Source of the DNA: an uncultured Nitrososphaerales archaeon | GTDB lineage: Archaea > Thermoproteota > Nitrososphaeria > Nitrososphaerales > Nitrososphaeraceae | NCBI GenBank assembly: GCA_963709405.1 | Contig: CAVPXM010000021.1 | Span: 250,561 to 314,560 of the forward strand | Direction: 5' to 3' | Length of the DNA stretch: 64,000 bases | Part shown: piece after piece, positions 25,659-38,238 of the stretch | Layout: each line of letters begins with the position of its first letter | Numbering within the stretch: position 1 is the stretch's first letter | The notes under the pieces: model-generated | Told to the model about the DNA's origin: nothing | The model's database searches: none | Seen by the model: only the letters and a program-made list of their open reading frames with translations | Position numbers and translations under genes: made by a program

Positions 25659-26094
25659 AATATCATCACCATGTTTAAGCTATTTTAGCAGCGCGGAGTA
25701 CAGAATCTATGGTTAAAGTATTTCTGACAAATTTAATATGTATAAACTATTGCAATTAATTACATAGTCAGATTTGGCTTTTCTAAATGGGCTACACTTT
25801 GCTGTTTGATTGTTGAATATCTAGCAAATGTAACTAAGCTTTTAATATATGTTTAACTATAATAGTCAATTTATTCGCCCAGGGTGCACAGGAGATATTG
25901 TCTTTTCAGTGTTCTATCTAAAGTTCTGGCACAGAACTATATTCCAACAGGCTAGAGGCGTCATGACTGATGCCTCTGATGGTGGCCTCTTGCACTTGAT
26001 ACTATAATGCATCTTGGAGTATCCGACAGTTGAATTCAAGCCATTTATGCAATTTTATAATTTGAGGGAGGGATCGATGTTTCAAATATGAAGC

Positions 26095-26658
26095 CTATTT
26101 AGATATCTGTCCTCTAATTTCTCCATTTGGATTTTGTTTTGTATGAACATTTACGTATGCATCGTTATCTTCAATAAGTTTAGTCAGATCTGAAATTTGT
26201 TTTCCTTTCAGTGGTCCTTCAAGTTTACTAGATGATATATCGCCTTGGGCTAGACTGTCCATTTACTGGACCAGTAGGGGTTAATGTCTTGAAACGAATG
26301 AGAGTAACTACAACAGGCCCGTTTTCACCTTTCTTACCTTGGTGTATATCTGCCATCGTAACTTTATCTATATTATTAACATCTACACTATAGTCCATAA
26401 TCATTCCATTGCTATTAGGAGTAAATTCAGCAGTACCAGGACTTTAGTATTCGTTGGCGGTACTTCGTCTTGACCACTTAGTTTTGCAGTGAACTTTTGT
26501 TCTACTTGCGCTAAAGCTGGCTCTAGAAATTTAATTGATGGTAACATCGTAGCTGTTGACATTGCTATTGCTACAAGACTAAAAGATAGCGTAACCAAAC
26601 TGACGATTTTGCGAGGATTGCTTCTTAAATTTTGAAATCTATCGAGATTTAACCTCAA
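26095..26658 (-). pseudogene. CHRD-domain secreted protein, frameshifted
   Basis: FTAKLSGQDEVPP, IHQGKKGENGPVVVTL and AYVNVHTKQNPNGEIRGQI lie in different frames. Confidence 0.85.
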
Positions 26659-27239
26659 TGAAATGTAAATGGAACTATGTTATATATCAGTTATCCGGCA
26701 TATTATAATAGATTATCTAACCGGCCCATAGGTTACTTGAGAATAACAAGTTAGTTATCTAACTTTACATTAGAGATTCGAACAAGGATATGTTTTAATG
26801 CTGGGCTGAGTATATATGGTAAAAATAGGAAGAGCAATATTAAGGGAGCTACTCTGACGATGCCTCAAGACTGCTAATCTAACGAAACCAGCCTCATGAT
26901 TAGGAACTTATTCGTAGGGTATTATTCGGGACACCTAATGCTAATGGCAAGAATTCCTTGAGCTATCAGAAAAAGACTGGTTACAACAAACTTAACCCAA
27001 CTTACTATAATTACATGGTTTCTGCAAGTCCAAATAATTTAACCTCTAGATTGGTGATTAATATGAGACTGTAAATACCAGAGTTTGAGCGTTTATAAAT
27101 ATATTTTAGAAATAAAACGAAAATCAATCGAATCGCCTGTTCAGACGATCTTATCTCTTAATACATCATAAATGTAAATATGATGAATAAATTTACCGGA
27201 AGCGAATATCACGTAAGACTTTAAATGCTGCATTTGATA

Positions 27240-27780
27240 TTGATCTAAAACCTATGTCTAGTTATTAGCAACGACTAGAATGCGCGCCGGAGAGGCTCTG
27301 TCAATACGTATAAAAGATCTGGATCTATATTCTAATCCTTCAAAATTATTTGTAAGAGGAGAATATACAAAAACTAGAACAGATAGAATTATTTTTCTAA
27401 CCGATGAACCTCATCAATTAAAATCATGGTTAGATTATAAACATCTGACTAGGTGAGTTTGTTACAAAGGCGACCAAGACGAAAAAACGATTGCAGAATA
27501 CAAAAGTCCTATTAAAAACGATACTGATTTAATACTTGCAGTTTACCAAGATATTGAAAAACCAAATTATCTCTGGCTCTATAACGATTTGCTTAAGTCT
27601 TTTCAAATGACATCAGATCGTATTGGTAAATACAAACAAAAGTAGAAGAATTAGAGGAATTAAATCAATCATTAAGACAACGTGACCAAGTAAAGGATGA
27701 TGCGGGAGCACAATTGTCAGATCAACTCGTATCATTATCAACTAGGTTACAGGAGATCGAGAGAAGACAACAACTATGAG
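27240..27780 (+). pseudogene. Tyrosine recombinase/integrase remnant
   Basis: LLATTRMRAGEALSIRIKDLD..VRGEYTKTRTDRIIFLTDE; stops, deletions, coiled C-terminal tail. Confidence 0.8.
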
Positions 27781-27794
27781 ATCAGCATCTGTTC

Positions 27795-28028
27795 TTCACC
27801 AAGTTCCTAACACATATGGAATGTTATTCACTATTTTCCTAAATGATACCACTGAACGCCCCATGGTGTTATTTGGTTTTTCTGGTGGAAGTATCAACCT
27901 AAATTCACCCCATAACTCATCTAGGGTTCTTTTGACAGTTGGAACGCATCTTGACTTTGTCGTAAGCCACATTTATGAACAAAACGTCTTTCAAGCTATA
28001 TGTCTATCTACTTTTAGGATAGGTTCTA
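27795..28028 (-). mobile_element. IS5-family 5' remnant
   Basis: TIR TAGAACCTATCCTAAAAGTAGATAG; DELWGEFRLILPPEKPNNTMGRSVVSFRKIVNNIPYVL. Confidence 0.8.
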
Positions 28029-28391
28029 AACCCCGCATTAACAAATCGTTCTCTACCAGAAGCTACAAATTCACCTACATCTTTTTTACTGCTGAAATAA
28101 TTAGCTGTGCTGAATAATATTTCAACTTCGTTGACATTCGCATTGAATGTTTGACGTTCATCTTTAGTGGCACCCACCCTCGATATTCATCAACAAGTGC
28201 TTGATCCAAAAGAGTTCATAAACTACTTTACCAATAAATTATATTTCAAAGTGACTCCTCGACGAGAAAAACTCTACGATACTTTCTATTTAAAAATTTG
28301 GTTACCAAGTGGTAATCCAATTTTCTTTATCTCACCTGTGTATTATTATAGTATCATAGATGTATATGTATCTTAATGGTGAAAAAGAACA

Positions 28392-29446
28392 ATGTATATG
28401 CGTTCAGTCCAAGTTTCTAAAGCTAATGGGCCTTTTGAAATCGTGGAACGAGAGGTTCCAAAGCCGAATCCTATGGAAGTGCGTATCAAAGTCCAAGCCT
28501 GCGGCATCTGTCACAGCGATTCTATCACAAAGCAAGGATTATTCCCGGGAATCAAATATCCTAGGGCTCCAGGACATGAAGTAGCAGGTGTTGTAGATGA
28601 AGTTGGAGGAGGTGTCGTCTCTGAATGGAAGCCTGGAAGAGAGTCTCTGTTGGTTGGTATGGAGGTCATTGTGGCCATTGTGAATCCTGCAGACGTGGGG
28701 ATTTTATTACCTGTAAGTATGCTCAAGTACCTGGGATTTCATATGATGGCTATGCAGACTATATGATTGCTCCCTCTTCAGCTCTGAGCATCGATCCCTG
28801 AGCGTCTTTCAGCTATAGAAGTGCACCACTTATGTGTGCCGGTATTACTACATATAATGCTCTTAGAAATAGCGGCGCACGAGTAGGTGATGCAGTTGCT
28901 ATCCTTGGAATAGGTGGACTTGGTCATCTAGGAATTCAGTTGCAGCCAAGATGGGTTTTAGGACTGCTTGCCATCGGACGAGGAAAGGATAAGGAGGATA
29001 TGGTCAAAAGCTTGGTGCTATTCACTACATTGATAGCCAGTCTCAAAATGTTGTTAAAGAGCTTGTCAAGTTTGGTAGTAGTAGTGAAAATGGTGGAGCA
29101 GTAGAAGGAGCAGATGGTGTCAAAGTCATCCTTGCAACAGCCCCAAGTGGAAAAGCAATGAGTGAAGTATTGGGTGGTTTATCCGTCAATGGAAAAGCTT
29201 ATCGTCGTAGGTGCTTCTGATGAAAACATAGAAGTGCCTCCAAATCTAATGTTACTTGGACGTAGATCGATTATGGGTTGGCCTAGTGGTACTTCTATCG
29301 ATTCACAAGATACACTCTCCTTTAGCGTTCATTCAGGTGTAAGATCAATGAATCAAGTGTTTCCACTTGAGCGTGCACCAGAAGCCTATGAGTTAATGAT
29401 GAGTGGTAAAGCTAGGTTTAGATGTGTACTTACAACAGGTAACTAG
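28392..29446 (+). pseudogene. Zn-dependent alcohol dehydrogenase (AdhP-like), multiple frameshifts
   Basis: CGICHSD, GHE, CGHCESC, MCAGITTYNALR, GIGGLGHLG and GKARFRCVL spread over several frames. Confidence 0.9.
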
Positions 29447-29609
29447 AGCGACTAGGTAAAGGAGGCCCCAGAAAGAAGATTATAGGCAGACGAGTGTGAT
29501 GGTATTCTATATCGCTGTCATAAAGATTTACCAACCTTAACAGGTAGTCGTCGTGAAATATTCGTTGCCATGATGTCTATTTTGTTATCGTAATTAATTT
29601 GTGAAGAGA

Positions 29610-30125
29610 TCAGACTGTTGGCACTGTTCCACCATCAATCACGTTCTCACTTCCGTTGATTGATGACGCTCTGTCTGAACCCAAGAAAGCGACCAGTTCG
29701 GCTACCTCTCCAAGACGTCCAGGACGACCAATGGGAGTGCCGCCAGGGGATTTCAGTAATTCTTGGCGCGCAATCTGCATATCAGATCCGGTTTGTTTGG
29801 ACAAGCGCTCTATAAGCGCTTGAGGCAGCAGAAGTCTCTATGAATCCCGGAGCAACCGTATTGACATGAACTCCTTTGGGCCCCACCTCGTTTGATGATC
29901 CCTTGTTGTAAGTTGTTAACGCTGCTTTTGCAGCTGCATAAGGCAATGTCGCTTCAAAAAGTGAAAGCCTTCCGAATCGACTAGATATGGATAATAACAC
30001 CAATAGCCCCCCTTAGGCATTCCGGGTAGTAACCCTCGATCCAGTCGAACAGCCGCCATAAGAGTTATGCTCAGCTCTTTTCGCCATTGCTCATCGCTCA
30101 AGACGCTTAAGCCTCCGCTTAGTGC
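29610..30125 (-). pseudogene. Short-chain dehydrogenase, 5'-truncated and frameshifted
   Basis: YAAAKAAL, VNTVAPGFIET, PIGRPG..EVAELVAFL..IDGG. Confidence 0.85.
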
Positions 30126-30258
30126 GAGTTAGCATCTTACATCTAAATGCAAGCAAGCACTTGGCTCTAGGGTATATTAGTCGAAAACCAAAAAATCGAT
30201 GCATTCAATTTTTCTTCATCATAAGTTAATAAGATGCAGCTATACGAATACAAAATAT

Positions 30259-30825
30259 TCATTTGGTCCATGGAGAATACGCAAGGAAATAAAAAGCAGG
30301 ATGGATTGATAGGCCCATTATCTTTTCGGGTCGGATCTTTATTGTAATTCGCTTATGATTGGGTTTTCGGTAGTAATATTTTCCAATTCCAAGATACTTT
30401 TTGGCAAGCCCTTTGAGATGCTCATCTGCTCCTTCGGTCGTCTGCTCGATTACCTTTCCTTTTATCGACACCATATTAAATGGATTGTTCTGCTCAACAA
30501 CGGATACGGCTATTCTTTTATCATTTGTTATATGTTTGTTTTTTGCTGAAGTTTCAAAAGTATTTATCAAGATGAAATCGTCGACCATCTCTGCCCAAAC
30601 GGGGGTGACATGCGGAGAGCCATCTTTTGATAATGTGGATAAAAAAGCTAAATTTCTGCCATTAAAAAATTGGTATACTTCCTCTTTAGTAAGTTGTGTT
30701 ACACCTGCTGCTAATTCATTTGCTGCAGTTATTGTTACGTAGTCTTCTGGTTCTATTGGAGGTACATCAACCACTTCTACTGAAGTTATTATCCTTCTAT
30801 GACTACTATCATTATCTTTTTGCAT
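30259..30825 (-). CDS. PPOX-class F420-dependent oxidoreductase (TIGR03618-like)
   Basis: LSTLSKDGSPHVTPVW, INT, NPFNMVSIKGKV, LAKKYLG. Confidence 0.88.
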   Translation of the reverse strand: MQKDNDSSHRRIITSVEVVDVPPIEPEDYVTITAANELAAGVTQLTKEEVYQFFNGRNLAFLSTLSKDGSPHVTPVWAEMVDDFILINTFETSAKNKHITNDKRIAVSVVEQNNPFNMVSIKGKVIEQTTEGADEHLKGLAKKYLGIGKYYYRKPNHKRITIKIRPEKIMGLSIHPAFYFLAYSPWTK

Positions 30826-31288
30826 ATTGTAAGAAGATTAGATAACTATGTATTAATCATTATGCTATATGATATTGCAATATAATACTAATTTTTAATT
30901 TGGCGCAAAATATAGTTCGTAAAAACGCATAAGCGATCCGCTTCATTATTAAAATTTGGTCCTGGAACTGCTAACACTTTCAGGAAAATGTTGGATTTGA
31001 CAGAAGTATCATGGAATGGTATTAAAATGTGCCAAACAGAAGCACTATCTATTAGTAATACAAAAAAAACTACTCTATCAGATTTTTGAATCAGGCAAAT
31101 CAATCTCACAGAATAATTATAGACTTGTGTAGGTAAAAACTCATTTTTGTTGGTATGGCTTTGAATGGTTATGAAAATTGTTAATGCGACTTCAGAAGTT
31201 CCTGATATGACCAGGGAAGAGATTTAGAGATTCCTTGAAAGTAAATTGATCGTGATCCATTTATAGTAGCCATTTTATCTTTATTGGT

Positions 31289-31648
31289 ATGACAAGTATT
31301 AGATCACTCTTAATAATAATTGCATTGTCTGTGATTGCTGTTTCGCTTATCATGCCATTTTATTCATATAATATATCTGCACTCAAATCACATGATTGCC
31401 CTAAATATTGTGATGGTTGTTGTGTTACCACTAAACCTAAAAATGCTACGGGAATAGGAACTATTACTCCAGAAGGAGCTAAGAGCGCGAATAGTGGACT
31501 TATTCAGGGTCCAATAACTGGCGATAATCAAAAATCTATGGTGCGTAATAATAGCGGTCCAACTCCACCTCCATGTCCACCAAATGGACCAATACCACCA
31601 AATTGCACAATGAAACCGTTTCCTAATGCTACTTTAGCAATTCGTTAG
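31289..31648 (+). CDS. Secreted Cys/Pro-rich protein
   Basis: Signal peptide; CPKYCDGCC; PPPCPPNGPIPPNCTMKP. Confidence 0.75.
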   Translation: MTSIRSLLIIIALSVIAVSLIMPFYSYNISALKSHDCPKYCDGCCVTTKPKNATGIGTITPEGAKSANSGLIQGPITGDNQKSMVRNNSGPTPPPCPPNGPIPPNCTMKPFPNATLAIR

Positions 31649-31927
31649 CGCGTTTGACTAACATTGTCACTCCTATTAGGAACTAATATACCAATTCGCT
31701 GGAATAATTACCAGATATTGTCAGGTCGGGGTTGCCGTTGTTGTTTACGGTATGCGGCCATCCTCATTGTTCTGCTGTATCCAGACGTTACCACAATTAA
31801 AACATATGAATCGTGTGTGATTTGGTTTGACCGACGTATCATGAACTGAATGGAATACGTTATTGCTACTGCATTTGCTACAATTAGTGAACATGGTCAT
31901 ATTCTGGTTAGTTCGTTGATTCCTTAG

Positions 31928-32209
31928 TCAGTTAGTGGGCTTGATTTCATCTAGTTTCAGTTGTCTTGACTTTTCTTGTTCGTCCAACTTTTTTAATGTC
32001 TTATAATGATCAAATATAATGGATAGGAAGATTGGCTGTATTCTTATAGGACTAGCGGCATAAGAACACGCTGAATTATACAAACGTTCAATTGAAAACA
32101 TTCTATCAAATAACTTCTTGTCAGATCTGCCAAGACAGTTGCGAAATTCCTTCCATTCTTCCTTTTCTACTAAGGTTGCTAATCTAAATGATGGAATTGT
32201 TCTACCCAT
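31928..32209 (-). CDS. Small conserved archaeal MGRT-motif protein (family usually linked to PolB2 loci)
   Basis: MGRTIPSFR..EWKEFRNCL..DKKLFDRMF..; family link is from recall, not searched. Confidence 0.75.
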   Translation of the reverse strand: MGRTIPSFRLATLVEKEEWKEFRNCLGRSDKKLFDRMFSIERLYNSACSYAASPIRIQPIFLSIIFDHYKTLKKLDEQEKSRQLKLDEIKPTN

Positions 32210-32231
32210 ACTGATTTACCCGCGTTGATAG

Positions 32232-32372
32232 ACCCTGGGATGCTAATTAAGAAGCTGGATGTCGGGTGAGAGGGAGAGAGTGACTATTGCTACTGCTACT
32301 ACTACTGAAATCTAAAGATGAGCGTTAACTTTTATGCTGGAATTAATCCAGCCTGTGTAGCGTGGATAGGGT
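32232..32372. ncRNA. Candidate structured RNA or cis-regulatory element
   Basis: Three nested helices: ACCCTG/TAGGGT, ATGCTA/TAGCGT, GCTGGAT/ATCCAGC; GC-rich relative to surroundings. Confidence 0.35.
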
Positions 32373-32473
32373 ATGAATGAATTGTGAGTGTCAAACTATA
32401 GGATTAAGTTGTGGACATCTATTAGGTAGGCACAGGCTTTGTAGTGCGTGCTCTAGAGTCATTTTTTCTTTGA

Positions 32474-32530
32474 ACGATTCTTATCTATAGAATGCGTGCA
32501 TTTGGCGCGCGGCCAAGACTTACATAGATA
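32474..32530 (+). repeat. Direct repeat copy 1 (ACGATTCTTATCTATAGAAT...TGGCGCGCG)
   Basis: 20-bp exact match plus about 35 bp similar to 33658-33718. Confidence 0.75.
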
Positions 32531-32762
32531 TGAAGGTTTCATCATAGATGTCTGAGTTACGATGACGTAAATTGCTATCCTGCAGGTATTTGCTTTACGT
32601 TCTATATGTATAGATCATCACTGTAACTGGAAAAATGAGCATGAGCACGACTCAACTTTCCCGTCATCTTTTCTCGATCAGAACCTTGTTATAATTTGAA
32701 AGATCCAAATTCAATCAATCATCAAAAGGTAAAATATTTCGCAGATCAGTATAAAATCTGAC

Positions 32763-32784
32763 TTAGAACCTATCCGAAAAGTAG
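32763..32784 (+). mobile_element. Solo IS5-type terminal inverted repeat
   Basis: TTAGAACCTATCCGAAAAGTAG is 21/22 identical to the reverse complement of the IS5 end at 28008-28029. Confidence 0.8.
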
Positions 32785-32789
32785 TTGAG

Positions 32790-33006
32790 GTTGTAATTTG
32801 ACTAATATAGGATTGGAATAATGACTAGGCGGTATACATCAAACCCCGCCTAGATGGTTGTAATTTGACTAATATAGGATTGAAACGTCACTAATGAGAA
32901 CAAAACAAGTAATGCGAGAAAATGTTGTAAATTGACTAATATAGGATTGAAACATCATGAAAGAAGTAATGTTAGATATCGAGGGTGAACCGTTGTAATT
33001 TGACTA
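32790..33006 (+). CRISPR. Orphan CRISPR mini-array with 30-bp repeat GTTGTAATTTGACTAATATAGGATTGAAAC and 3 spacers
   Basis: Repeats at 32790-32819, 32857-32886, 32924-32953 and truncated 32992-33006; unique spacers of 37, 37 and 38 bp; ATTGAAAC 3' handle typical of type I-B/I-A/III; no cas genes in window. Confidence 0.9.
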
Positions 33007-33322
33007 TTTAGTCAACAGGGGACTAGCCAGATGGAATCCATCAAGAATATTTCACAACCTAAGAATACTAAAGTTCCGTTAACCCTGAGTTTGTACTTGA
33101 GATCTATCCCGATAAGTACGTGTAGCCAGAGTTAATCAGAAAGTTACCTATTTGAGTTAGTTAGATCTGCCATCCATCTGCATGTAGCCGGCCGGATTAT
33201 ATCTTTTTTATGAATTAGGATCTTAACAAATATGCTGACGAATAGACGCTTAGGAATTCAGATCATTATTCCATTGAGCGGAAATAAAAGAAGACCTCGC
33301 TTAAGAATGTAGGAAAAAATAT

Positions 33323-33493
33323 TCAATCAGCAGTTCCACCACATGCACAGTAACCTAATTCGTCTATTCTGCAGTTGCAGAATTGGCGATATCCAAACAG
33401 ATCATAGCTCATTTCCCATGATTCCTTCCCAAATTTGTATAAATGAATATTAATCTCATCAGGAATTAATTGCGAAGATTCATTTTTATTCAT
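33323..33493 (-). CDS. Cys-rich microprotein (56 aa), putative zinc finger
   Basis: MNKNESSQLIPDEINIHLYKFGKESWEMSYDLFGYRQFCNCRIDELGYCACGGTAD; paralog at 9071-9213 conserves the reading frame. Confidence 0.75.
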   Translation of the reverse strand: MNKNESSQLIPDEINIHLYKFGKESWEMSYDLFGYRQFCNCRIDELGYCACGGTAD

Positions 33494-33657
33494 TATATTA
33501 CAATTAAAAAATAAACGCTATATTATATTTAAATTCGATATTCTCCCGGTCTACGAAAATAATGTAGAGCTATTATAACATTTCCAGTACAATCTTTTCC
33601 CATGCGTTATTAATTACAAGTATCACGTCAAGTTATACAACCTCTTCGCATCGCCGG

Positions 33658-33718
33658 ACGATTCTTATCTATAGAATTAGGTATCTGGCGCGCGCCCATG
33701 ACTAACTCACATACAGAC
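33658..33718 (+). repeat. Direct repeat copy 2
   Basis: Matches 32474-32530. Confidence 0.75.
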
Positions 33719-33788
33719 TACCTGATTAATGTCTAAATACATCGAATCAAAAACAGTCTATATAGGTAAAGTCTCATTTTAGAAAATA

Positions 33789-34842
33789 GATCTCTTGCGT
33801 AATTAGCAGTTATGATCTATTAATGCTGCCTATTTTGACTGTATTCTTAGATTGAAATCCTGTTAGACTGCATCACTCTGAAGTTCAGTATACCGGATAC
33901 AATATCAGATATGTTATTGTACCTTCTTAGTTTGTTTCTGAACTTAATACCCATTATTCCAAACTTCTTGATCTTGCATATGGTGTGTTCTACTATCTAT
34001 GATCCTGAGTCTTGAGTGATTCTTGTTGTATCTCATATCGTCATTTGAAAGCAAGGTATTCTTTTTCTTTCTAATGGGAAGTACAGACTTTACTGTGGGA
34101 AAGTCCTTTTCAATACCAAGATAACCAAGATCAACTATATTGTCAACTTGTGATGGAGTTATAGTAGGATGATTGTGTTTGTAAATGTCATAATCATGTT
34201 GTTTTCTTCCATTCCTGTGACCTGTCTTATGCAGGATCAAACCTTCAGTATTAACCATCAATTGTGTCTTGACAGTATGTTTCCTCTTTCTACCTGAATA
34301 GTAACTCTTTCTCTTTCTCTTGTTCTTAGGTCTTGGAATCTCCTGTTCTGTAGAGTCTATGAAAGCCTTGAATCCAGGGAAGGACTGTTCAACTTCCTCT
34401 ATAGTTCTTAATCTCTTAGTACGTTTGTATATCTTCTTTGGCAATGGAATACACTCCTTTAGCAAAGATTCTAGGATAGTCAAATCTCTAAATACATTGC
34501 TCTGGTCAAGATCAAATAGAAATCCCGATAATGCATATGTAATGTACAATCGATAATAAACCAAAAGCATTAGAAGTCTTTCTCTTGGTTTCAGTTTAAA
34601 CGGTCTACCGGCACCAACATCTCTTTTCCTCTTCCTTTTAGAAAGACGTCTTCTTTCATATTCCTCATATTTCGAGTCCATTTCTGTGCTTATTTGATCA
34701 AATTCTGGTACAGTTAGTCCAGTAAGTGACCTGAATAACAAAGGCTTTTTGCATAGTCTTCTATATGACATCAAAGAGATATCACATAAATATCCTATAT
34801 GACGTCGAATATAGCTGTAAGCTTCTAATTACGCAAGAGATC
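33789..34842 (-). mobile_element. IS5-family (ISL2-like, HTH_Tnp_4 + DDE_Tnp_4) element; transposase 33944-34774 frameshifted near C-terminus
   Basis: Perfect TIR GATCTCTTGCGTAATTAG flanked by TA on both sides; FIDSTEQEIPRP, YYSGRKRKHTVKTQ, VDLGYLG. Confidence 0.92.
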
Positions 34843-35016
34843 TAATGTTTATAATCTGATATGATGCATATCGTATTAGAAGACGCTTTTTCCGATATAA
34901 TTATTATGGGATTTCATCAGAATTCCAGTTTTGTCGACATGGATCATGATCCTATTAGGGTAATAATTCTCACATAAAGCGTAAAACTTAACTCCTCGAT
35001 AAATTACTATCTTTTA

Positions 35017-35211
35017 ATGACTCTAAGCTTAAACTGTAAGGATGCTGGTGATCCAGTATGCACACACACTATGTATGGTGAAACAGAAGAAGAATTACTA
35101 CAAAATGCAAAGAAGCACGGTATCGAAGTTCATGGATATAATGAACAGACGTGGAACGAAGAAATATCTAAAAATAAAGACCATTTCCTCAAACTCATGA
35201 AAAGTTCGTAA
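35017..35211 (+). CDS. DUF1059 small metal-binding protein
   Basis: LNCKDAG..C...GETEEELL...H...VHG. Confidence 0.85.
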   Translation: MTLSLNCKDAGDPVCTHTMYGETEEELLQNAKKHGIEVHGYNEQTWNEEISKNKDHFLKLMKSS

Positions 35212-36174
35212 ATTACTTTTCATCTTTTTTATTGAGTTCTTTCCAAATATCAGTCCAGAAAAAGCATTAATATCCTTTCGGATGGTTTCCTTGAATTAGT
35301 ACTTGAATACACCTCTAAGTGAACCAGTAAAAATCACAATACATTATCGTTTCACTATCATGTAATTTCGCTGCAGTCATCAATTGGAGTTCATATTACA
35401 CAAATATGAGCTTACTGTCTTTAACCAGTCCAAACTTATCGGTAGATAACCATTCCTCTTTGGAATATTAATATTATATTTGATCATATAATTTGGATTA
35501 AAGTCTAATCTCTTTATCTTTCTTTTAAATGCTTACATTTCGTATCCCTTCCTCCAAAGTTATTCTATTGAATAGGTATACCAGGGTGTGTCTTAATTCT
35601 AAACAGAAACAAGCCTGAGCAAAATCCTTAAACGAATGAGCTTTCTCACGGTCTAATCCCATTAGAGACGTTAATCAATCATTAGGAGTATTTTATGAAC
35701 GCTAAATGGTGTGTCACAGCCGCTAAAACAAAAGCTTTATTATTAGGAGGATGGAAGGAAAAAATTAAACCTGGGTGGGGTGGTCTTTTGACAGGTCCTT
35801 CAATACTTGAAACAACTCTTTTTCATCAAGACCATCAATGATGTTAATTTTAGCATTCTTTTTAATGCTATCTAACACAGAATCAGCAAATCATATAACT
35901 TATCTATATTTTTTATTTTTGTTATCTCTGACAACTTTTTTAATAAATCGTAACGATTTAGGTTATCTTGTGTTGTTGTAAGTTTTTGTTAATCATCATC
36001 GTTAAATTGATCCGTAACCTCTTTGGGCAGAGCAGACATAAGGCCTGAAGCCACTTTCGGAGTAGATTTTTGAAGAAACATTTAGGTGTTAATTGTTTTA
36101 CAATGATAGTCACTAACTGCTGTAGCTATTTAATTGATGGCACATTTAACTAAGCTCATCTTAATTTAGATCTT

Positions 36175-36375
36175 TCACTTGTCTTCCGAATCTCCTTTGT
36201 AAATACCAAATTCTTTCAGAATTCTAATAACTGTTGGAATCTCTAAATCGAGTTGCATGGCAATGAACTCTTCTCCTATTCCAGATTCATATAGATTCAT
36301 AACGATTTGTTTTTTATCTTCAGATAATGTTCCCCGCCCTAAGAGTTGTGACGACGTATTGTCAGATAGTGACAT
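36175..36375 (-). CDS. Small helix-turn-helix protein
   Basis: IVMNLYESGIGEEFIAMQLDLEIPTVIRILK. Confidence 0.75.
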   Translation of the reverse strand: MSLSDNTSSQLLGRGTLSEDKKQIVMNLYESGIGEEFIAMQLDLEIPTVIRILKEFGIYKGDSEDK

Positions 36376-36404
36376 CTTTCTATTTCTATCTTAATTTTAA
36401 GTTA

Positions 36405-37588
36405 ACAGTTATGTAAACATGTAGATGCTTTCTCCATGTAAACTGTTTATACTAGTTTTGCCTCTATGTTTTTTATTATAATCACATGCCCAATCAGATA
36501 CTGCTTTACCTATATCACGTTCATTTTGAAAGGTGGAATTGTTTATTGCTTGTCGTTGCATCCATAGCCATCTTACCTCTATCAGATTGAGCTCGGGTGA
36601 TCTGGTGGGAAGAAATACAAGGTGTATCCTTGGATGGATGATATTTGGATAATACTGCTTTCACCTTGTTTGATTTATGTATCGATACGTTATCAAGTAT
36701 CAGAAATATCTGCTTGATACTATCGTCATACTTTTGGTCCATTCTTTTGATAAAATCTAAAAACTGTTTTCCGGTTTTCTTTTTGTAGCCATGCGTCCAC
36801 ATTTGATCATTGGTATAATCGTATATACCAAACACGTTTAGAATTCCCTTTGTCTTTTGAGCTTTGGATACCTTAGACTGTGTAGAGGACCAAGATGTAC
36901 CGCCATATGTTTTTGCTACTATCGGTCCTTTCTCATCCTCGTAGAGCAGTACTGAGTCAGAAGACAGGTTACTGTATCTTAGTTCTTCAATTCTCTTTTT
37001 TTCAAATGATATTCAGGATCTAGGCTGTATCCCAGAGTAATCTTTGACTGCCTATATTTTATTCCGTGTTTTAGGAGGATATTTCTAACCTCGGTGTGGC
37101 TGATAGCATCTACAAGGCTCATCTCCTTGGAGACAAATCCTGCTAGTACTCTTAATGACCATGTGGAAAATGGTAATCCATAATCTTTTCTTGAATTTTT
37201 GGTTGCTATCTCCACAATCTTATTCTCCATATCGTCAGATATTTTGATTGGTTTATGCTTGTGTATTTTTGATGCTATTCCATCTATACCTTTTTCATTG
37301 AAACGATGAATCCATTTTCTTATGTTGCTATCATGATGGTTAGTTGCCTTCCTTATTTCAGGAACTGTGTATCCATCATCCTTAAGAAGAATAATCTTTG
37401 CACGGTATCCAGATTCTCTATCCTCAAGTATGCTATCATGTAACCTATTCTTTTCATTATTTGTAAGCAATCTGAGGAATGTATCCCTCATGCTGATAAT
37501 TTAAAAGAGAGTAAGCTAAAGGTGTTATGGTATCTGAACGAGCACTGTTAGTTTACAGAAGAGCATTACATATTCTTTACATAACTGT
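36405..37588 (-). mobile_element. IS630-family element (orfA 36979-37491, orfB about 36430-37000)
   Basis: TIR ACAGTTATGTAAA flanked by TA; A7G slippery site at end of orfA; YEDEKGP and ILDNVSIH DDE motifs; extra frameshift in orfB. Confidence 0.9.
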
Positions 37589-37791
37589 TAACCAACTTAA
37601 ATATGGTTGATTAACTTTGTTAACTAATTTGGTAAAAGAATTAACAGCTTATCGTACGACCAACATCCTAGCTACTAATTGATGTTCATACAAAAGTCCC
37701 TCTTAATTGCTCGATAATATCTCAATTCATAGAAATTGCTTAAAATCTTTAATATAGAGGAGTAATAATAATTAATACAGGGGATGTCATT

Positions 37792-38238
37792 ATGACTGTT
37801 CGAATAGATCTTGTTAGAGAAGTTCGAGCATCGGTCCAACGTGTTTTAGAATATTTCATGAACGTAGAAGAATTACCTCGTCTTCATCCAGAATATATCA
37901 AAAACGTCAGAATCATAGATCGGAAAGTGGCAGACAACAGTAGTGATAGTAGTATAGAATTCGAGCAGGAGGGCTCATTTCATGGCAAGAAGATTAGATC
38001 TGTAAATAGACTAAATAGACTAGCACAGGACAATGTTATTAAGATTGAAACAATAGATGGAAATGGCAAAGGGAGCTTGACGACTATTAGATGCCAAGAA
38101 ATAGATCTAGGAAAGACACAAATAAAATTGAATGGAGAGCTTCATTACGGACTATTGGAAAAACTACTTAGTCGATCTATTCATGGTATTACAGAAAAAA
38201 CTCTAGAAGAGGATATTCTGAACATAGAACAATCGTAA
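37792..38238 (+). CDS. SRPBCC/START-like family protein
   Basis: Polyketide-cyclase-like pattern VRASVQRVLEYFMNVEELPRLHPEYIKNVRII. Confidence 0.75.
   Translation: MTVRIDLVREVRASVQRVLEYFMNVEELPRLHPEYIKNVRIIDRKVADNSSDSSIEFEQEGSFHGKKIRSVNRLNRLAQDNVIKIETIDGNGKGSLTTIRCQEIDLGKTQIKLNGELHYGLLEKLLSRSIHGITEKTLEEDILNIEQS

Follow-up and report, generated by a model that had tools for sequence, protein, structure and literature searches.

A CRISPR mini-array in a Nitrososphaeraceae genome as probable cargo of a composite IS5-family transposon

We analysed a stretch of 64,000 nucleotides (nt) from an uncultured archaeon of the Nitrososphaeraceae, referred to below as the window. It corresponds to positions 250561-314560 of contig C21 in a 4.83-Mb assembly of 100 contigs that is 91% complete (genome G000). 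The window contains a short CRISPR array that lies beside a solitary end of an insertion sequence (IS) of the IS5 family. The array has a period of 67-68 nt, made up of 30-nt repeats and spacers of 37, 37 and 38 nt, and its features are listed in Table 1. The fourth repeat is incomplete: 15 nt from 32992 agree with the repeat and are followed by unrelated sequence. As read from the sequence, the solitary IS end, which we call End1, is joined straight to repeat 1 and points into the array, in the place of a leader. No AT-rich leader was found before repeat 1, where the 24-nt IS end and a TTA duplication are seen instead. The list of open reading frames (ORFs) of the window contains none of 50 amino acids (aa) or more across the array, and no transfer RNA (tRNA) was found near it. 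The only relevant hit of an Rfam search of positions 26000-38000 was CRISPR-DR2 at repeat 2, given for the minus strand and below threshold (24 bits; gathering score, 37).

Table 1. Features of the mini-array and of the IS remnant in the window (window positions).
Feature	Position	Strand	Remark
Left TTA, one copy of the 3-bp target-site duplication	32763..32765		preceded by GAC, the preferred target of the IS family
Solo IS5-family end, End1 (GAACC...GTAG + TTGAG)	32766..32789	+	first 24 nt of the IS alone
Repeat 1	32790..32819	+	2 mismatches within the last 4 nt (3' GGAAT, not GAAAC)
Spacer 1, type A, 37 nt	32820..32856	+	8-bp hairpin stem, loop of ~13 nt
Repeat 2	32857..32886	+	exactly the family consensus
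Spacer 2, type C, 37 nt	32887..32923	+	also at C21:92602-92635 and C59:11027-11059
Repeat 3	32924..32953	+	1 mismatch
Spacer 3, type D, 38 nt	32954..32991	+	copies at C21:92534-92571 (100%) and on C40, C55 and C63 (97%)
Repeat 4 stub	32992..33004	+	first 13 nt, the last three being GAC; an IS abuts the array here in 8 other copies
TAT, putative footprint of a lost IS	33005..33007		TAA expected, 1 nt off
Right TTA, putative second copy of the target-site duplication	33008..33010		followed by GTC
Truncated remnant of a third IS5 subfamily, 231 nt	27797..28029	-	separate from the array element

Most of this anatomy had been described in an earlier reading of the window from its letters alone (the sequence-only reading), which had reported four 30-bp repeats, the first mutated at its 3' end and the last truncated, with spacers of 37-38 bp. 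Our analysis confirms these points. The repeat has three matches in the window at up to 3 mismatches, and none of 100 shuffled sequences gave any match. That reading had also noted a 22-bp IS5 end located 5 bp before repeat 1 and identical at 21 of 22 positions to 28008-28029. In our search the window had only two matches to the 22-nt end, one at 32763-32784 and the other, inverted and with 1 mismatch, at 28008-28029 (shuffles, 0), and the 5 nt between the array-side end and repeat 1 read TTGAG. The two are not partner ends. The end at 28008-28029 closes the truncated IS remnant to its left, a separate 231-nt piece of the third subfamily that matches the final 231 nt of a full C7 copy with 83% identity, and we therefore ruled out that the ends at 28029 and 32763 bound one 4.7-kb transposon. 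The left junction of the array is covered by contigs of two DNA runs from different studies (X1 record 2 and X3 record 16), and a further contig (X1 record 6) spans 32885-33212, i.e., the right junction. As independent DNA-run contigs cover both junctions, the locus is not an assembly artefact. Part of the locus or more is present in 20 runs from 15 studies.

Searching the whole assembly with the repeat (up to 3 mismatches) yielded 36 matches, which group into 15 clusters of one to four repeats each on 10 contigs. The reversed pattern, used as a control, gave 0 matches genome-wide. A sixteenth cluster, on contig C46, has a different repeat and is treated below. About seven spacer types are shared among the 15 loci: A with 12 copies, B with 6, C with 3, D with 5, E with 5 and F with 3, plus G and G'. 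The spacers of the window, which had been called unique, all belong to types that recur elsewhere in the genome. Spacer 3 is identical at 38 of 38 positions to its copy 190 kb away on the same contig, and spacer 2 matches its copies on C21 and C59 over 34/34 nt and 33/33 nt, respectively. The order in which the types occur (B before A; A before F, G, C, D or E) is compatible with the loci being deletion derivatives of one longer array.

The junction seen in the window is also recurrent. A 27-nt IS end, consisting of the TTA/TAA duplication and 24 nt of IS, is fused to base 1 of the repeat at 11 of the 15 loci. In relatives the same 27-nt end opens intact IS copies, with the IS interior next to it. 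The flanks of the copies are mutually unrelated, and for 10 of the 15 loci the upstream 400 nt are single-copy in the genome.

IS5-family elements of ~950 bp are abundant in the genome, with an end-like motif at ~176 places, and two subfamilies bear on the mini-arrays. One, IS-X, is present in at least seven copies that are ~97% alike and have kept ORFs of 78 and 214 aa. The other, IS-Y, is ~79% identical to IS-X, and its ORF on C97, the counterpart of the first ORF of IS-X, matches DUF4096 (E = 2e-12). Six IS-Y copies are longer than 600 nt (on C21, C30, C40, C50, C55 and C97). All six adjoin a mini-array, with the same IS end placed on the repeat stub at GAC/TAA, and all six have fragmented transposase frames. 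The arrays on C59 and at C63:38158 adjoin an IS-X-like element at the same repeat position in the opposite orientation.

The target preference of these elements accounts for the shared position. The 3-bp duplications match in all eight full IS-X-like copies, being TAA in seven and TTA in one. GAC precedes TWA at 23 of 115 TWA-flanked ends of the IS family (20%; background, 0.8%). The shorter AC is found there at 46% of the ends (background, 4.5%), and T is enriched at -5 and -4. At most 8 of the 23 GAC-preceded ends are the array junctions themselves, and the enrichment persists without them. The preferred target, TTGAC/TWA, is the centre of the repeat (ATTTGAC/TAA/TAT). Arrays of this repeat are thus natural landing sites for the IS family, and different IS copies can be found at one and the same repeat position.

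We propose that the feature in the window is a remnant, stranded at this site, of a composite IS5-family transposon, a non-autonomous element with part of a type I-B-like CRISPR array as its cargo. We put the probability of this reading at roughly 0.68. We read the array as an IS-mobilised CRISPR fragment that is probably inert. That a non-autonomous IS5 derivative had captured and moved a CRISPR cassette was one suggestion of the sequence-only reading, and it is the one favoured here by the junction at 11 of 15 loci, the shared spacers and the linkage of all six long IS-Y copies to arrays.

The founding event would have been the insertion of an IS (DUF4096 and DDE domains, ~950 bp, TAA/TTA duplications) into a repeat at GAC/TAA, and a second IS end, trimmed to 24 nt, would have become fused to the first base of an upstream repeat. 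The resulting unit would then consist of the solo End1, the array, the repeat stub, IS-Y and End1, which is the order found in the best-preserved unit, C55:150264-151583. As inverted copies of End1 stand at both extremes, such a unit could transpose whole, the transposase probably being given in trans by the intact sister element IS-X. In both complete units, that on C55 and C63:38130-39265, the cargo lies between inverted IS ends with TAA on both sides (by eye). For the copy on C30 a paralogue on C54 (94-95%) shows homology that stops exactly at the outer base of End1. The unit is present at 15 loci or more, and single copies may later have shed spacers through recombination between repeats.

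The window copy would represent a unit that inserted at GAC-TTA-GTC and lost its IS part afterwards, so that what is left over would be End1 with three repeat-spacer units, followed by the 13-nt stub, the TAT as a footprint and the right-hand TTA. GAC-TTA is seen left of End1, and on the right the GAC of the stub is followed by TAT-TTA-GTC. Taken together, the flanks would restore GAC-TTA-GTC, which is the preferred target in perfectly palindromic form. Loss of IS-Y at its own ends is expected to leave GAC-TAA-TTA-GTC, from which the window differs by one base. A second IS-less copy, C63:192330, has TTA on its left and GAC-TAGC-TTA on its right.

Two known kinds of element were considered and rejected as descriptions of the window feature. 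A miniature inverted-repeat transposable element does not fit, as the IS-less copies, including that of the window, have End1 on the left alone and on the right a repeat stub without an inverted end. A CRISPR-associated transposon does not fit either: the carrier is an IS of ~950 bp with a single DDE transposase and lacks Tn7-like or Mu-like genes with an interference-deficient effector. The cas genes of this genome lie on another contig and include Cas3, and insertion follows the fixed TTGAC/TWA preference.

Several observations weigh against the composite transposon. The arrays on C50, on C97 and at C21:92572 are joined to IS-Y and are without a recognisable outer End1. A 167-nt IS-Y-like fragment on C38 (89% identity) lies away from any array. 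TAA is by far the commonest duplication, so that matching duplications around the composite units are weak evidence. A search of the six other genomes of the genus for an allele of the window locus that is empty or bears an IS matched other multicopy repeats only. As no such allele was found and the flanks are unique or consist of other repeats, the proposed excision footprint depends on 9 bases. The similar divergence of array and IS, described below, is calculated from few sites, and weak selection or a past function is possible. In an oligo-dT soil RNA library (X19), 23 contigs fall on the array and the flank to its left, which makes transcription of the array possible; these contigs carry no strand, ends or processing, and DNA carry-over could also produce them. 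Finally, the right junction of the C63:192330 mini-array has a 19-nt near-copy (18/19) 67 nt upstream of the first repeat (C63:192263-192431), for which the IS model does not account.

To place the repeat among known CRISPR systems, we compared it with the cas locus of the same genome and with arrays of relatives. A genome-wide Pfam search for Cas1, Cas2, Cas4, Cas6, DevR/Cas7 and RAMP gave hits on C46 as the sole contig, and for these six families it bears out the earlier statement that no cas gene occurs in the 64 kb. The models for Cas1, Cas2, Cas4 and RAMP had no match in the 91%-complete assembly. The C46 locus reads, in order, a cas6 fragment, a 5-repeat array, a gene with the Cas_CXXC_CXXC domain that we read as cas8b, cas7 (DevR), an ORF of 187 aa and cas3. 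The 187-aa ORF is at the position of cas5 and has no Pfam match. We regard the locus as an adaptation-less type I-B-like operon. The first ~925 nt of the contig (C46:1-925, locus L012) are GC-rich and bacterial-looking and are joined to AT-rich archaeal DNA inside cas6. The start of C46 is thus probably a chimeric assembly join or contamination that truncates the sole cas6 found. The four spacers of the cas-linked array are each single-copy, in contrast to the mini-array spacers. Its repeat is identical to that of the mini-arrays at 23 of 30 positions, with positions 17-29 identical throughout, and fold prediction gave no structure for either repeat. A cas locus with the very same repeat, which had been proposed as a thing to look for, did not emerge: the C46 repeat differs at 7/30, and no cas operon with exactly the mini-array repeat was found in this genome, in 60 relatives or beside two orphan arrays.

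The search for the repeat and its junction in relatives had likewise been proposed, and besides the 15 loci in this genome it yielded the repeat in 1 of 60 relatives. In that relative (G006) an orphan array consists of a full repeat, a unique spacer and a second repeat that is broken by an IS-like end. Two metagenome contigs also have the repeat; in one of them there are two spacers, both unique, and a stub that ends at the same GACTAA. The G006 array and the metagenome orphan arrays have no cas gene nearby. In a genome of the same genus (G001) cas6, a leader and an array occur together, and the repeat of this array is identical at 25 of 30 positions to the mini-array repeat (manual count). 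The arrays with unique spacers in G006 and the metagenome, together with the cas6-adjacent array of G001, indicate that the mini-array repeat is a genuine CRISPR repeat of the lineage.

A genome from another genus of the same family (G020) has three copies (L036, L039 and L041; 96-98% alike) of a further element, which is 1.6 kb long or longer. Each copy bears a solitary CRISPR repeat (at ~1480-1520), the last 20 nt of which are identical to the mini-array repeat. They are a second example in the family of multicopy DNA that bears a CRISPR repeat.

The array could have stayed where it is: an IS would have landed in a resident chromosomal array, deletions would have trimmed the array, and nothing would have moved. 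IS insertion into arrays of this repeat family is indeed seen elsewhere, for instance in the second repeat of G006, and IS remnants and broken genes are strewn around the array. This explanation is contradicted by the whole family, as the same End1-repeat junction and the same spacers occur at 11 to 15 unrelated loci with unique flanks, and spacer 3 is shared without a mismatch with a locus 190 kb away. We consider it highly improbable for these reasons. Insertion of an IS into an array followed by deletion had been offered earlier as the simpler alternative; the insertion was probably the founding event, but the sequence of events fails to explain the family. A unique junction, and relatives carrying a long array with a cas operon, had been named as signs of a decayed relic; the junction recurs at 11 of 15 loci, and the one relative of 60 with the repeat carries a 2-repeat orphan array. 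Harder still to sustain is the idea that the 30-nt units never were CRISPR repeats and are internal tandem repeats of the transposon that resemble them. The "spacers" do recur, and the IS interior past the 27-nt end is loosely like the 5' half of the repeat (by eye). Against this, the same repeat is found with unrelated single-copy spacers and no IS end in G006 and a metagenome contig, the repeats next to cas6 on C46 and in G001 share 23/30 and 25/30 positions with it (the latter counted manually), and units of 67-68 nt are typical of CRISPR arrays. We regard this as barely tenable.

The remaining explanation grants the mobilisation of the arrays and gives the cargo a function. The mini-arrays would be transcribed, cut by Cas6 and loaded into the adaptation-less type I-B complex, where they would act either as decoys without a target that weaken host immunity by dilution, in the way of RNA anti-CRISPRs, or as guides against rival mobile elements, in the way of viral mini-arrays. 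CRISPR RNA (crRNA) units of ~67 nt with an 8-nt AUUGAAAC 5' tag would then be expected. The 13 nt before the last base of the repeat, which include most of the 8-nt handle, are identical to the C46 repeat. Unstructured repeats are expected for this CRISPR class, and the repeats of C46 and of the mini-arrays are both of this kind. The mini-arrays amount to ~36 repeat units against 5 in the cas-linked array, and RNA-library contigs lie over the array and its left flank. Mini-arrays and solitary repeats of viruses have been reported to act as decoys or guides (PMC11656645; PMC10651486). Against this, the search for spacer targets suggested earlier was carried out and revealed no protospacer. BLAST of 8 spacer sequences against the own 4.8 Mb of the genome returned only other array copies and chance matches of 18-19 nt, and exact scans of IMG/VR with the type-A arms and the 23-nt cores of spacers C and D gave no match, types B, E, F and G being outside the scan; these searches tolerate few or no mismatches. 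In 120 genomes of the family the matches of spacer C were all weak among those listed (E ~0.002 to 0.02 per genome, with 401 further matches), and we treated the listed ones as chance.

The divergence of the array also speaks against a function. Pairwise identity is 92.6-98.4% for IS-Y bodies, 92.1-92.2% for repeats between loci, 93.2% for spacers other than type A and 94.2% for the type-A arms. The repeats have thus diverged at the pace of the dead IS, and 7 of the 36 carry a mutation in the last base of the handle. All copies of the carrier IS are dead. The array most likely decays at the rate of the dead IS and behaves as passenger DNA. The RNA support comes as assembled contigs, which are blind to strand, ends and processing, and a second RNA run (X18) covers only 32284-32475, upstream of the array. 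The array may be transcribed and cut by the host Cas6, but a function of the cargo is overall unlikely, and the composite transposon with a probably inert passenger is the reading we prefer.

The type-A unit deserves separate mention. It forms a stem of 8 bp with the arms CTAGGCGG / CCGCCTAG, which the window copy has in common with 11 other copies, and a loop that differs between copies. Its predicted folding energy is -16.4 kcal/mol (z = -3.0), and none of 200 shuffles reached this stability. The arms are 94% conserved, but optimal alignment of the ~12-nt loops brings their identity to only 64%. On C30 two A units stand in tandem, the first of which is near the A unit of C50 and C97 and the second near that of C63:258282 (by eye). 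These likenesses favour paralogous A-type spacers from a longer ancestral array over local hypermutation. Paralogous spacers leave unexplained why a target should have arms that are constant and a loop that varies. Box C/D small RNA, the T-arm of a tRNA, an attC site and an IS200/IS605-type hairpin were tried as identities of the unit, and none fits (by eye). The type-A unit could be a diversified recognition element and not a set of paralogous spacers. That the IS-borne arrays serve as an RNA decoy or guide store, with the type-A unit separately acting as such an element, is in our view quite unlikely.

IS derivatives with passenger DNA between IS ends are known as transporter IS, mobile insertion cassettes and composite transposons in the ISfinder nomenclature. 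The unit described here is like transporter IS and composite transposons in that its passenger lies between inverted IS ends with the 3-bp duplication of the family and in that the transposase would act in trans. It differs in its passenger, which is non-coding CRISPR repeat-spacer DNA, and in that one bracket is a solo end of 24 nt placed at repeat base 1.

CRISPR repeats are known from other mobile elements. Mini-arrays occur on viruses of the Sulfolobales (PMC6858448), mini-arrays and solitary repeats on viruses have been reviewed (PMC11656645), stand-alone arrays are found on thaumarchaeotal integrative-conjugative elements (PMC6563490), and solitary repeat units of mobile elements are described as RNA anti-CRISPRs (PMC10651486). 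Like the mini-arrays of mobile elements, those described here are short, cas-less and element-borne, with a repeat related to that of the host CRISPR-Cas system. In contrast to them, the carrier is an insertion sequence of ~1 kb and not a virus, plasmid or conjugative element, ~15 copies occur in one genome with the spacers copied along with the element, no targets were found, and the repeat is related and not identical to the cas-linked repeat of the host (7/30 differ). As with RNA anti-CRISPRs, CRISPR repeats on a mobile element could engage the host Cas proteins without immunity (PMC10651486); the units here are repeat-spacer-repeat, not solitary repeats. IS insertions that inactivate cas genes have been described (PMC10359306). 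In both cases an IS targets a CRISPR locus, but there the cas genes are inactivated, whereas here the repeat has the TTGAC/TWA target as its core, and the array would then have been carried off with the IS. The terms "insertion sequence" and "IS5" do not occur in the 2024 review (PMC11656645). We found no description of an IS-borne, multi-copy CRISPR mini-array in the literature searched, the scope of which did not include supplements or a paper on arrays away from cas genes (PMC7757702).

For annotation the family is a caution: in IS-rich genomes, transposon cargo can take the form of orphan mini-arrays, the spacers of which are then silent on past infections. It also suggests a dispersal route for CRISPR repeats, in which an IS with a target consensus inside the repeat breaks an array and then moves and amplifies the pieces. 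The ~36 repeat units of the mini-arrays outnumber the 5 repeats of the host's own adaptation-less type I-B array, for which no adaptation genes were found. If the copies were expressed, most repeat-bearing RNA would therefore stem from transposon cargo. Transcribed and cut by Cas6, the mini-arrays would fill the effector with blank guides and so constitute a transposon-borne decoy against CRISPR immunity; alternatively, they would be a store of guides against rival elements. Expressed copies would connect transposons and the CRISPR immunity of soil ammonia-oxidising archaea in a new way.

The surroundings of the array in the window are a patchwork. Three more multicopy repeat families lie beside it (31800-32210, 33325-33542 and 33780-34000), with copies that are 83-100% identical on many contigs. 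The third of these is part of an IS with a DDE_Tnp_4 transposase (33944-34774, minus strand), and a PNPOx-like gene is also found in this neighbourhood. A series of short ORFs adjoining the IS remnant of the third subfamily (28167-29446) looks like a broken gene, and one of them (28392-28766) matches the N-terminal domain of alcohol dehydrogenase. At 32474-32530 and 33658-33713 we observed two copies of a promoter-like motif that consists of an AT-rich box, 5-6 nt and a GC-rich TGGCGCGCGCC-like block. The two copies bracket a segment of 1184 bp that holds the array. The first 20 nt of the motif (up to 3 mismatches) occur at ~16 places in the genome, many of them with the same GC block downstream. 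The end of the X18 RNA contig at 32475 coincides with the start of the motif. One contig of the X19 library fuses 32314 to 32599 and omits the 284 nt between them (window 32315-32598), including the promoter-like motif; this segment may be absent or replaced in the strain from which that contig derives.

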